Shown: one piece after another, positions 15,001-21,000 of the stretch
Layout of the letters: every line of letters begins with the position of its first letter
Numbering within the stretch: position 1 is the first letter of the stretch
Assembly (NCBI RefSeq): GCF_003334405.1
Contig: NZ_QOWM01000019.1
Length of the DNA stretch: 60,909 nt
Source of the DNA: Escherichia coli
GTDB taxonomy: Bacteria > Pseudomonadota > Gammaproteobacteria > Enterobacterales > Enterobacteriaceae
Reading direction: 5' to 3' (one strand)
Program-made: the position numbers

Positions 15001-18000
15001 GATTTTCTTACAGGTGTAGGCTAATAGCCTTCACAAAATAATTATCCGCGCAATTTTCGTGAATGGAGCGCATAGACTAAGGTCAAAATCACAATTATTC
15101 ATAGATAAAAGTGACACCAATGACTGACTGGACGGTTCCGGCTGAAACCTTGTTTCCTGTTTGTCCATAGGTTGCGCTTAAACCCAGAGGTACTTTGCTT
15201 TTATTTACTGTCCCCAGGGAGACATTTTCTCCCGTAGCCAGTATTTTTCCATTACGCATTAGAGTGACACCCACTCCCGATGCTTTTGTTGCATCAGGTG
15301 CTGTGTTAGCAAACACTTGTCGGCTACTGTCAGTGGTGGCACCCGAAAGATAAAATGAGAGCTTTTGTTCGCTTGAGCAATATACGCCAAGGGGTATTTC
15401 TGCGCTTCCAGGAAAGTCCGGGAGATCCACGGTGACATTACGACTATCAACGGTGCAGCCGCCTGTTGGCATAACAACATTGTTATTTGAAATAATATTC
15501 CACGTAAAATTACGCGGATTTCCGCTTCCTAATGTTGCAATTTTATACATATGAATACGGGCAATGACTTCCCCCGCTTTTATGACAACTCCACCGGCCG
15601 CCCCAACTGGGGTAATATAGAGTTTTAACGGTAATGGCATCGGTGTCTTATCACCAATATCCAATACGTTGGTATTTGTCGCCAACGGGAAGGGGTAGGT
15701 CACATTATTCCAGTACAGCGATCCTTTATATGACTGTAGGGAGCCTGCGAAAGCTGAGCCTTGTACCAGGTTTATATGATCAGTGTCGTACCAGCCACCG
15801 TAATCATTCCAGCAACTTATATGCTGAGACAAGTCTACAACCAGATTCTGGCCCGGCTGTATTACAGGGTCGAGATTAACATAAACAGAGGTTGTACCTG
15901 CTCCAATACTTGACCCGCCATCGACATTACAACTGAAGGCAAAAACTTTGCCTGCCATTAATAGAAGATAAATACCGAACAGGACCTTTATACTGATTGT
16001 TTTACCCATGATATATCCTAAGGTTAAAAATTGATTTAAAAAGAAGGCTAAGAAAATCGAATCGACGTTATTGCCAGGTGTAGATCACATTGATTAGCGC
16101 CTCGATCGTTCCCTGGCTTGCGTTTCCATTCACCGTGATAGCTCTTGCCTTAAGTGGAAACTGTGCATTACGAGTGATCTCATCAACAATAACCGTTTTG
16201 CTATCGCCATTTTTTAACGCAGCATCCTGGTCATCCCTCAGCTCTATCTGAATATTTTCGGCAGTACCTTCATTTTTGTAATAACCCGTATTGTCAGTTG
16301 AACCTGTCACGATTGCCGTCACTGCACTTGTTTCAACCGGACAATCGGTTAATGACAAAGTAATATTGTGCCAGCCAGATGCAGAACCAGGTTGTTGCAG
16401 ATTGCGCGTATAAAGATCCCCGAGATTAACGTTAGCTTCTTTGGTTTGAATAGTGCAGGGTTTAGCGACTACCCGACCATTAACAGTGATAGTGACATCG
16501 GCGGCCTGGAGAGTTGCTGTGAATAACGCGCAAAACGTAGCTAACAGGAACCTCTTGTGAAGTCTTTTCATATCTGACTCTGATTATTGAAATTCAAGGG
16601 TAAAGGTTGCCGAAGCCCTCACCAGTCCCGGATTGACGGACTTCTGAGTTGACTTCAGACGAGCGGAGTAAGGCAAAATATTGTTCTGTTCTGGTACCAG
16701 TGGGATCCACTGCATCCCGGCATGAAGATCATTCAGTTTCACCGGACGCATATTTGCGTCCAATATTTCTATACCCAAACCGGAGGCCGTATTGCTTCCT
16801 TCATCCAGTTTCAACAAAGTATTATTTTCTGCATCCTCAATACCGTTAAATGCAACCCGAACCCCCGTTGTCCCTTTGCTGCATTCACTTAACGTAATCT
16901 GAAAAGGGACGGCTGGACTTGTGCTACCGGTCGTTGGAAATTGTCTGGCACTGTTTTTTTGGAGATCTACGGTAAAATTAAGCGAATCCGATGAGACTGT
17001 GCAGCCATAATCGAGGACGCGCCCGCTAATTTTAATAACGCTATCTGCGGATAAAGCAGAATAGGTGGTTAACCCCAGACATAAACCGAGGAAAATAATG
17101 TTATTGTATTTCATAATCTATTGTTCCTTAGCGACAGATTGCTGTCTGCTGGTTCAGTAAGGTACCAGGAGAAACTTCAGGAAGCTTGTACTCGACAATA
17201 CAGTTTGAGTTTTTATCTTTGCCCCATGAAACCTGTAATTGCCCTGACTGTGGAAGTCCAGTCAGATAAACCTGACCATTTTCCGCGACAATGCTGCCAT
17301 TTTTATTCTCTCCGTGTGTGACAATTGCACCGAATGGAACGCTCTTATTACCGTACTTCAACGTCATTAATACTTTCCCGCCGATTTGTGCATTAAATGT
17401 TGCTCTGGCAATAGCACCGTGAGTTGGGATGACAGTGACCACGGTTTCATCCAGTTCAACATTATCTGCAAGGGAATTCGCGTTAAGAGCAACACGGTTT
17501 TCTCTATATTCTGTCGCAAATGGTAATATGGCATAGCCACGCCAGTCGGTATGAATTCCGGTCTGGTTCTCTATTTTGACATTATCAGCACCAGGAGCCT
17601 TAACCAGAACCATTGTGTCGCCCAGCGGCTGTCCAAAGGTGATGCCATCAGCATGAGCAATAATCCCACCACTCATTCCGTAATAAATCTGGCTGCTGTC
17701 ACCACTCCGACTGTAACCGACATTAGTATTACCATAAGCTCCACGATAATTAAGAGAACTGTAACCACTGGTGCCAGACGATGTATTACCTCCGTGGGTG
17801 TTACCGACCTGAACGCTATAATTCAGGTTATTATCCGGCAGCAGAGTGCCATAAACCCCCGATAGATTGGTCATGCCGCCTTTCAAATCGTTTGACATAC
17901 TGTAACTGGCGTTTGAATTACGAAATGCCGACTGACTGTCTGTACGCATCCAATGACTGAAGGGAACATTAAGCGTAAAAGCGAGTAAATGATCCCGATC

Positions 18001-21000
18001 GTTTTGCCATATATTATTGGAATAGCTGTAATTCAGCGAAGTCGTAATATCACCAAACGGCACATTTAATCCAAATGATATTTGCTGGTCGCTGCGTGAC
18101 GTGTTCCAGTAACTTTGGCGACTGGCACTGAAAAATGTCGTACCGTAATTTCCAAGCTGCTGAGAGATGCTTATTTGTTCCTGACCACGCTTACTGTAGA
18201 ACAGATTAAAATAATCAATAACTTGTGTCTGCTCATTGGTGTCTCCGGTAGGAGGCTTGACGGTGTAACCACTCATTCGACTGTAGGCACTGTCGGATAA
18301 GTTATAAAAACCTTGCGTAGAATAGCGATATCCTGCGACCTGGATATTGGTTCCACAACAAGTTTATTGCTGCACTTGTTGAAGAGAGTATTTGCAAAAA
18401 CATTTTATGTCGCTAAATAACATGACGATTTCATTATGCATGTTATTTATAAACCGTGACTAAACAGAATATTATTGCGAACAAGGGAAGTGTCAGGAAA
18501 GGTCAAGAGCTACCAATGGTTAATATGGCTATAAATCATTAGCTATGGTTAATGTTTGCTTGCTGAAACTAACACCGAATTGCTCTAAACAGATAAGTGC
18601 AGGGTTTATTAAAGCTGTCCGACAGACTTTCTTAACCTGGTAATATCTCTCTTGGGTGACTCTCCAAACATCCGCGAATATTCCCGACTGAAATGGGATA
18701 GCTTTCGTAACCGACAGCATAGGCTGCTGTGGTGACATCGTAATGTTCATTCAGCATCTGTCGCCTGACTTCATTGAGACGTAGCCATTTCTGATACCGG
18801 AGTGGACTCATTCCCGCTTGATCCGTCCTTAAATAAGTAACAGCACCCTCTGGTGTTTTCGTATGCAGTGTCTATGCGACAGACACTGCGCTCTTAGCAT
18901 GGGGCAGGGAATAACCAGGCTATTTCTCCATGCACAGGCCAATTATGAAAGAGGAGAGGCTTAAGTTCTTGAACCCTGAACGAATAACGACTACCAGAAA
19001 AGCACTTCGCATCACTCAGACATGATTTAACATAATATACATTATGCGCACCAATATAAACCAAGGAAGAATCCAGTCGTTGGCGGTCATGATTGTCATG
19101 CTCATTAACAATGACCAAACCCCATATCTCACTTACTACCGTATTCTCGGCTTAACCGTCCATGCAACCTCAACACATTGCTTTCAACTGCCGTCACCAC
19201 GTTCTCCGGAAAATCTGTCGGTAATGAAGTCTTCACGTTATCCAGTGCTGCTGGAATCATTCTGGCAAAGTCACTCAGGATTTCATGCATCTGCACTTCC
19301 GGGAATCTCAGCACCTTTGCTGTCGCCAAAAAATGTCGCGGATAAATTTTATCGATTGCCGTTTTTTTGCCTTTGGATGCGTTAAGCCCCATTGCCAGTT
19401 TGAGATCGCTGATGTGTATTCCCGTACCGCCAAGGACCGGAAATGCTGAAATGATGTCGTAAAATGGCGTGAGTCGATAACTGCCGCCAGCCTGAATAAA
19501 TACGGAGAAGTTTTTTGCATGACCGTCCGTTGCGCCAATCAACCACTGGAAGACCTGGAATTTCATAAAATCATAGCGATCTTTCAGCGCCTCGCTGGAC
19601 CCCATCAAAAAAGCCATGATCCGCGCGATGCCTGGGCCTCCATCTGATTCATATTTCACCGATGAAGGTAAACCGAATGTCTGACACATATCCTCCTGTG
19701 GCAAGCGAAGTAAAACCGTTCGCTCAGCATTCCAACGCCTGTCAAAACGTTCGACCGCTAACGCGCGCACATTTCCCGCTTTAATGATTTCTGCGTCCGG
19801 AACATTCAACCCAAGTTCTTTCGCCAGCAGCAGACAGTAATACTCATTATCAACGCTTTGGCTGAGATCGAGCGTCGCATTGGGCTGCCTGATTTCGCCA
19901 ATCGGTAATTTAATGATGTGCGTCGTCGGCGTTATTCCTTTCGGAATGCACCAGTCATTGCCTATTCTGAGCAGTGCTGTCTTCTCCTGTGCGCCAGCAA
20001 CCGAGATGCGAAAGTCATTTTCTTCTCTAATCATGCCTAGCGGGATATCTGCTTTATAAGCCGTTAATACTTCTTCAAGTCTGGCTTCAGTAAGCTTTTC
20101 CCATGCCATTATCGGATGCGTTACGGTTTCGTCTTCGGGTATTAACGTCACGGCACCAACGCTGTCTCGCCCTATTTCTGACAATAAATCAAACGGTTGT
20201 CTGGATTTGGCATGATAACGTTTAACGATCCGGTCACGTACAATCGGGCTATCGGGTAACAGGTTATCGAAGAAGTTAAATACGGCATCAGAGGTGATAT
20301 TCCCCCTCTGCAATGGCAGCGAAAGTGACAACGGTCTGGCATAACGGCTTGCTAACCACTCCGGTGCATACTTAAAGGTGTGCGCGCCGTTGGCTAACTT
20401 CGTTAACTCGCCTACCCGCTGGTTGTTCATCCAAGTGACAAGTTTAGGCATTACCACTCCAGATTTTGCTGTTCTGTTGATTCTGGCGAGGCATTTTTCG
20501 CGTCGCATAGCGTCATTGAGAGTTCAAGCGACTGTAAAATCTTAAAAAATGTCGTGAGCGTGGTATTGTCAGGGTTGTTTTCGAAATTGGAAATCGTCGC
20601 CTGCTTAATACCAATTTTTTTCGCCAGCTCGCTCTGCGTCCAGCCATTTTGCTGGCGAACCAGTTTCATTGCATTCGCCAATTGCGTTGGGCTATAGATC
20701 TTCTGAAAGCTCATCATGTCATACGTCCACAGCAAGTTTATCCGCTTAAGGGGATATTATAAGTTTTATCCTTTAGTGAGGATAAGTCAATCTGGAAACA
20801 CATCTTATCCGCTCTACGGGATAAACGCTGCGATATCCGCGATCGCGGATAAAAAGGAGGATTTAAATAAGGCGTTGATGCGCCGTTTGAAGTCGGCAAT
20901 ATTAAGCCGCATGCCATCTCGACATGCGGCTTATACGGTTTACCAGCTATATTTCACTTCCAGCATGCCCTGAGTATCGCTATAGCCTTTATCACCTAGT

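Follow-up and report, generated by a model that had tools for sequence, protein, structure and literature searches.

The fimbrial gene cluster ydeQ, ydeR, ydeS and ydeT' on a 60,909-nucleotide stretch of Escherichia coli DNA (contig NZ_QOWM01000019.1; this whole stretch is called the window below, and positions are counted along it) is very probably, at about 93%, the 3′ remnant of an F9 (Fml/Yde) chaperone-usher operon that was formed by a single illegitimate deletion of 3,279 bp and is unable to build F9 fibres. F9 is a close paralogue of the type 1 (Fim) fimbriae. It belongs to the core-associated chaperone-usher types, found intact or disrupted at one locus (Wurpel et al. 2013, PMC3559732), and f9 is broken in K-12 as well as in every phylogroup A strain that was examined (PMC3966885), which agrees with the view of an earlier note on this DNA, made from the sequence alone, that the cluster is cryptic in K-12. 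The disruption of F9 in K-12 and phylogroup A is thus already known (Wurpel et al. 2013, 2014; RefSeq flags ydeT as truncated). Added here are the position of the junction to the base, the survival of the promoter and of 72 nt of leader, a count of how often the junction occurs among 5,426 complete E. coli genomes, and a list of independent and secondary lesions.

The deletion junction

The remnant lies between ydeP and the dif-hipBA region, where dif is the XerCD chromosome-dimer resolution site, and is colinear with the intact operon locus of E. coli O111:H8 and of ATCC 25922. The gene order annotated by RefSeq in K-12 is ydeP, ydeQ, ydeR, ydeS, ydeT (a pseudogene with its N-terminus missing), a frameshifted helix-turn-helix fragment, hipA and hipB. 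As an intact reference we used E. coli O111:H8 7-55 62A (locus L003), whose operon between ydeP and hipBA, at the same locus, has all six genes; upstream of ydeQRS it encodes an 883-aa usher, a 236-aa chaperone and a FimA-like major pilin of 187 aa. The G+C content across the locus is low, at 37-47%. BLAST aligned the window to L003 in two colinear blocks, with window 14700-18354 corresponding to L003 9001-12655 and window 18354-21000 corresponding to L003 15934-18579, and at the level of single bases the two flanks overlap only at 18354.

18354, no strand: deletion junction, a single base common to both flanks, with 3,279 bp missing relative to intact F9 operons

Lost with the segment are usher codons 1-475 (the 5′ 1,425 nt), the genes for the chaperone and the major pilin, and the 177 nt that directly precede the pilin ATG. 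The earlier note had proposed a deletion scar that took away the 5′ half of the operon, and had placed its endpoint at 18350-18370; the colinearity with L003 on both sides of the break upholds the scar, and the comparison with this complete operon puts the endpoint within the predicted interval, at 18354. No direct repeats bracket the endpoints (12655 and 15934 of L003) in the intact sequence, nor was a remnant of an insertion sequence (IS) found there. Given an overlap of one base and the lack of a repeat or IS at the ends, we infer illegitimate recombination; a plain deletion of this kind seems to account for the event.

The missing genes were also sought elsewhere. Searches by tblastn with the F9 major pilin and chaperone from the intact operon gave no match in the whole 60.9-kb window (best E values of 0.095 and 0.33, respectively), and both genes fall within the deleted segment in L003. 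The claim that 18364-19128 holds no chaperone or pilin gene likewise stands, since tblastn gave no match there and the ORFs of this interval have no fimbrial family matches in NCBIfam; the small ORFs of 18529-19118 have no NCBIfam match of any kind.

The usher stump

The usher gene is represented by its 3′ part, which begins at the junction.

17128-18354, minus strand: ydeT', what is left of the F9 usher gene at its 3′ end, with codons 476-883 and the stop codon

Residues 476-883 of the intact 883-aa usher align to window 18354-17131 at 99% (tblastn). The usher match of the stump is far above chance: against FimD it covers mature residues 425-833 of 833 (E=3e-162, 57% identity), and against the NCBIfam usher profile it covers positions 469-877 of 877. 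Pfam finds PapC_N, the Usher model at 1-549 and PapC_C in the full-length F9 usher, and in the stump the Usher model from 259 to 549 of 549 together with PapC_C, with PapC_N absent. ydeT' is without a start codon, a signal peptide, the N-terminal domain, the plug and the first half of the barrel, and RefSeq calls ydeT a pseudogene that lacks its N-terminus.

The earlier note had described an usher frame that opens at about 18363 in the middle of a FimD-like sequence, and the translation of 17128-18450 agreed with this, including the protein start that the note had quoted. The frame, which is continued by an ORF at 17128-18276, is open from 18363 and closed by a TAA at 18366-18364, so that it does not run further upstream without a stop, a possibility that the note had raised. 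The true homology boundary is 18354 rather than 18363, however, and the three codons at 18363-18355 derive from the f9 leader, as does the TAA that closes the frame.

A single-nucleotide polymorphism (SNP) at 18222, which changes F to V in the usher, was unmatched by the top-ranked matches (all 99.7% identical) among the 5,426 complete genomes.

The retained tip genes

Downstream of the stump lie three genes for the tip of the fimbria.

15095-16009, minus strand: ydeQ, 304 aa, full-length two-domain tip adhesin, FmlH ortholog
16068-16571, minus strand: ydeR, 167 aa, full-length FimG-like minor tip subunit
16584-17114, minus strand: ydeS, 176 aa, full-length FimF-like adaptor subunit

The ORF listing confirmed that all three are intact and full-length, as had been judged from the sequence, and signal peptides are present on YdeS, YdeR and YdeQ alike. 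YdeQ residues 25-184 are identical at 158 of 160 positions to the lectin domain of the solved F9 adhesin FmlH (6AOW), which substantiates the earlier assignment of the operon to F9; ten related structure entries were also matched, and full-length YdeQ matches FimH with E=6e-81. Its sole difference from the K-12/O111 protein is T110A, which is private to the window. YdeR scores 256 bits against the NCBIfam FimG model (cutoff 220) and is 57% identical to FimG, and YdeS scores 239.7 bits against the FimF model (cutoff 200) and is 45% identical to FimF. Mature residues 1-16 of YdeR (ADVTITVNGRVVAKPC) are identical at 15 of 16 positions to those of FimG (ADVTITVNGKVVAKPC), in what is the donor-strand region of FimG-type subunits. 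Both YdeR and YdeS are identical to the proteins of the intact-operon strain O111:H8 (L003).

Predicted consequence of the deletion

Among the parts of a functional system, the minor and adaptor subunits are present, and the periplasmic chaperone, the major pilin and a complete usher are absent. Chaperone-usher subunits cannot fold without their cognate chaperone in the periplasm (donor-strand complementation), and it is the complete usher that polymerises and exports them, its N-terminal domain recruiting chaperone-subunit complexes and its plug gating the barrel. Since the chaperone is gone and the usher consists of half a barrel plus the C-terminal domains, without a signal peptide, assembly of F9 fibres from this locus would be impossible as far as the pathway is understood. 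We propose that a single deletion joined the f9 leader at +72 to usher codon 476 and left behind the f9 promoter, repressed by H-NS, together with an usher stump that cannot be translated and the three tip genes, still intact, and any YdeS, YdeR or YdeQ that is produced would be expected from the pathway to be degraded in the periplasm. The deletion would be an old one, common to a quarter of the complete E. coli genomes, with decay of the remnant probably still going on.

The remnant resembles the known F9/Fml systems (CFT073 c1931-c1936, O157:H7 and UTI89 fml) in its locus between ydeP and hipBA, in the order of usher, two minor subunits and adhesin, in the 158/160 agreement of the adhesin lectin domain with FmlH, and in a promoter motif that matches in sequence the one mapped in CFT073, whereas it differs from them in having neither major pilin nor chaperone and in the loss of usher residues 1-475 and of 177 nt of leader. 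With the type 1 fimbriae (fimAICDFGH) it shares the gamma-type chaperone-usher architecture and the FimF-FimG-FimH design of the tip. It is, however, a paralogue elsewhere in the chromosome, without the fimS invertible switch or the fimB/E recombinases, and its adhesin is of the FmlH type (galactoside-binding, PMC3966885) and not a mannose-binding FimH. Other broken f9 alleles (E. coli B, SK6988 and GmM062) concern the same operon and were also inactivated at the dif-proximal end, but by lesions independent of the K-12-type deletion. The locus is a textbook case of decay in a core-associated adhesin operon, and its value is mainly for annotation.

The retained promoter and leader

Upstream of the junction the window keeps two elements of the f9 control region.

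18433-18462, minus strand: f9 promoter, -35 TAGTCA, 18-nt spacer, -10 CATAAT, from a promoter scan and a match to the CFT073 architecture
18355-18426, minus strand: f9 5′ leader, its first 72 nt, colinear with L003 15935-16006

The start of f9 transcription in CFT073 was located by 5′ RACE at a G that lies 251 nt upstream of the pilin start codon, with a -10 of CATAAT, a -35 of TAGTCG and an 18-bp spacer, and H-NS binds and represses the f9 upstream region, the operon being expressed at 20 °C (Wurpel et al., PMC3966885). The promoter in the window is identical to that of L003 and is present in all sampled deletion carriers. In ATCC 25922 (B2), the G seven nt after the -10 sits exactly 251 nt from the ATG, and the homologous G in the window is 18426, which would place the f9 start here at about 18426. 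With this start homologue and the junction at 18354, the deletion would have left the promoter in place along with 72 nt of leader, counted from the start, and fused both to usher codon 476.

From the sequence, transcription from the retained promoter into ydeT'-ydeS-ydeR-ydeQ is plausible, and such residual transcription is probably weak, both because the DNA is AT-rich and a known target of H-NS, and hence of H-NS silencing, and because the approximately 1.2 kb of untranslated usher RNA, at whose head neither a start codon nor a ribosome-binding site is evident, may invite Rho-dependent polarity. The retained promoter would account for the ydeQRS probes that still respond in K-12 expression studies.

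Two further features of the leader were noted. A short ORF, MLFSDIKCFCKYSLQQVQQ followed by a stop codon, occupies 18367-18423 on the minus strand; it begins 3 nt past the inferred f9 start, lies in the frame of the usher stump, and its stop is the one that closes the usher frame. An 8-bp perfect hairpin at 18355-18385 on the minus strand (stem CAACAAGT / ACTTGTTG, 10-nt loop) ends 2 nt from the junction. We do not claim this hairpin as the cause of the deletion, as the leader folds no better than shuffled sequences (z = -0.9).

Distribution of the junction, secondary decay and other f9 lesions

A 300-bp probe centred on the junction was used to survey the 5,426 complete E. coli genomes. The junction was contiguous in 1,375 of them, including MG1655, ATCC 8739 and many natural isolates, and the deleted segment was present at a coverage of at least 80% in 3,538. 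Each of the 11 carrier loci that were fetched contains the exact 41-mer across the junction. Because the junction is common to so many genomes, it is an old lineage marker and not a laboratory artefact, and 18354 can serve as a handy lineage marker, found in about 25% of complete E. coli genomes.

Secondary lesions were found in half of the eight non-K-12 carriers that were sampled. The ydeQRS genes are intact in five (ATCC 8739, NCTC9080, 300709, 167 and S1-INA-02-B), although S1-INA-02-B has an IS2 within ydeT', between the promoter and ydeS. In the other three, ydeS/ydeR are destroyed: NT1F31 carries an IS5 and Ec42 an IS2 there, and cM8a has lost 357 bp. These lesions fit a remnant that is still decaying.

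Besides the K-12 type, f9 has been broken in other ways, and altogether at least four independent deletions affect its dif-proximal end (L003 coordinates 9537-16347), those of the K-12 type, GmM062, SK6988 and the B-type DL21.

L003 12656-15933: K-12-type deletion
L003 9537-13218 and 14137-15996: two deletions in GmM062
L003 15184-16347: deletion in SK6988, with loss of the pilin, the promoter and yneL
L003 15562-16222: deletion in B-type DL21, 661 bp, covering the pilin 5′ end and the promoter

In the E. coli B-type DL21 the usher and chaperone genes are full-length, but both carry stop or frameshift mutations. The recurrence of dif-proximal deletions could reflect a hotspot, or repeated selection for silencing of the operon.

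Alternative explanations

Nothing speaks against the deletion itself, but some points of the wider interpretation are less secure. The protein identity of YdeQRS between the K-12-type and the intact-operon strain could mean that the deletion is recent, or that selection on these genes has continued. The sample behind the secondary decay is small, consisting of eight non-K-12 carriers taken at even steps from the listing of junction matches. The f9 start was mapped in CFT073, which is not a deletion carrier, and the -35 of the window is one base off (TAGTCA vs TAGTCG). An in vitro genomic SELEX (systematic evolution of ligands by exponential enrichment) study of K-12 placed peaks of RNA polymerase holoenzyme at ydeS-hipA and ydeR-ydeQ (PMC5493296), which are a low-resolution hint of promoter activity rather than proof of it.

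The chief alternative is that the remnant is alive, with the retained promoter driving YdeS-YdeR-YdeQ and FimC/FimD assembling these subunits into hybrid pili with a galactoside-binding tip of the FmlH type. None of the three ORFs is broken, each has a signal peptide, and their products match those of intact operons exactly or almost so; the promoter and start site have been kept, and the paralogy with Fim is considerable (57% for YdeR/FimG, 45% for YdeS/FimF and 57% for usher/FimD), reaching 15 of 16 residues in the donor-strand region of YdeR and FimG. In addition, hybrid organelles have been obtained experimentally by swapping minor components between type 1 and F1C fimbriae. However, ydeS or ydeR is destroyed in three of the eight sampled carriers, and one more carries an IS2 that separates the promoter from ydeS; these lesions argue against purifying selection on the tip module; the long untranslated usher stump should also lower expression of the genes downstream of it. 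We therefore consider hybrid pili very unlikely. A wider version, in which the quarter of E. coli strains with the junction express an orphan FmlH-type tip at low temperature that FimC/FimD graft onto type 1 pili, is conceivable given that neither the f9 promoter nor its start site was lost, but it has even less to recommend it as a probable state of affairs.

Alternatively, the loss could have been promoted by its context, if the zone of the terminus next to dif, through breakage, Xer integration or hyper-recombination, is a deletion hotspot. dif lies 671 bp from the junction, the deletions at the dif-proximal end, of which there are at least four independent ones, take the pilin and/or the promoter, filamentous-phage-like or other foreign genes are found at dif in 300709, cM8a, NT1F31 and PKF8, and the immediate 5′ region of f9 is variable (PMC3966885). 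Yet no dif-like sequence or repeat is present at the K-12 junction, the clustering of lesions at the pilin/promoter end could equally be due to selection for shutting off the operon, and the independent events examined are few, so that a hotspot seems unlikely. As for the converse history, in which the K-12 type came first and the operons now complete gained a pilin-chaperone-usher 5′ segment by insertion, the formal symmetry of insertions and deletions is all that speaks for it. In the window the usher sets in midway through the beta-barrel (Pfam position 259, FimD residue 425) and lacks both a start codon and a signal peptide, the leader breaks off at +72, and the complete form occurs in 65% of genomes across phylogroups; the truncation within a domain effectively refutes this history. 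A single deletion from a complete F9 operon remains our preferred account of the locus.

Neighbouring genes and other features of the window

The region between the junction and hipBA contains two annotated or matched features.

18609-18817, minus strand: yneL, AraC-family helix-turn-helix pseudogene fragment, identified from the RefSeq annotation
19025-19052, minus strand: dif, an exact match to the experimentally confirmed E. coli 28-mer GGTGCGCATAATGTATATTATGTTAAAT (sequence from PMC3025954)

The earlier note had correctly reported an AraC fragment and hipBA upstream of the remnant; they are normal neighbours and were not brought there by the deletion. RefSeq annotates yneL as frameshifted, with its N-terminus missing, in K-12 and equally beside the intact operon of O111:H8, and since both this fragment and hipBA stand in the same state upstream of an intact operon, neither is part of the scar. 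The yneL homologue in PKF8 is annotated as AraC family. In B2 strains the region upstream of f9 differs, with an SDR oxidoreductase and a LysR fragment, and variability of the immediate 5′ region of f9 has been described before (Wurpel et al., PMC3966885). An Rfam scan of 14700-20800 returned only a sub-threshold OxyS-like chance match (20.5 bits against a gathering score of 75).

The AraC-type fragment and the hipA stop codon flank the dif site, whose exact copy at 19025-19052 indicates that the window spans the replication terminus/dimer-resolution site. It was found, exact or with one mismatch, in every fetched locus that spans the interval from the f9 upstream region to hipA, except PKF8, where no dif was found in that interval, and cM8a, where only a shifted, degenerate dif-like site with 4 mismatches was found. 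Foreign genes stand beside dif, in the usual place of hipA, in 300709 (L015 4440-7500), cM8a (L010 4299-6864), NT1F31 (L007 4608-7500) and PKF8 (L011 8636-12332). Those of 300709 and cM8a are filamentous-phage-like (Zot family, GspD-like secretin, replication protein II/X and ssDNA-binding protein), and those of PKF8 are a restriction endonuclease gene and TIGR02391 genes. These foreign genes are probably Xer-integrated elements.

Over its 60.9 kb the window differs from MG1655 at 36 SNPs and lacks a single base at each of two places, about 22399 and about 60627. On these differences we rejected the idea that the window is K-12 itself, and it is K-12-like only. Ten of the differences cluster in 60627-60885. 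The deletion at about 22399 falls in a large autotransporter gene (20940-25235, minus strand; ECSE_1600 family), which is annotated as frameshifted in K-12; with this 1-bp deletion relative to MG1655, the gene in the window contains a 1,431-aa ORF, and it is intact in ATCC 8739, strain 167 and SK6988.

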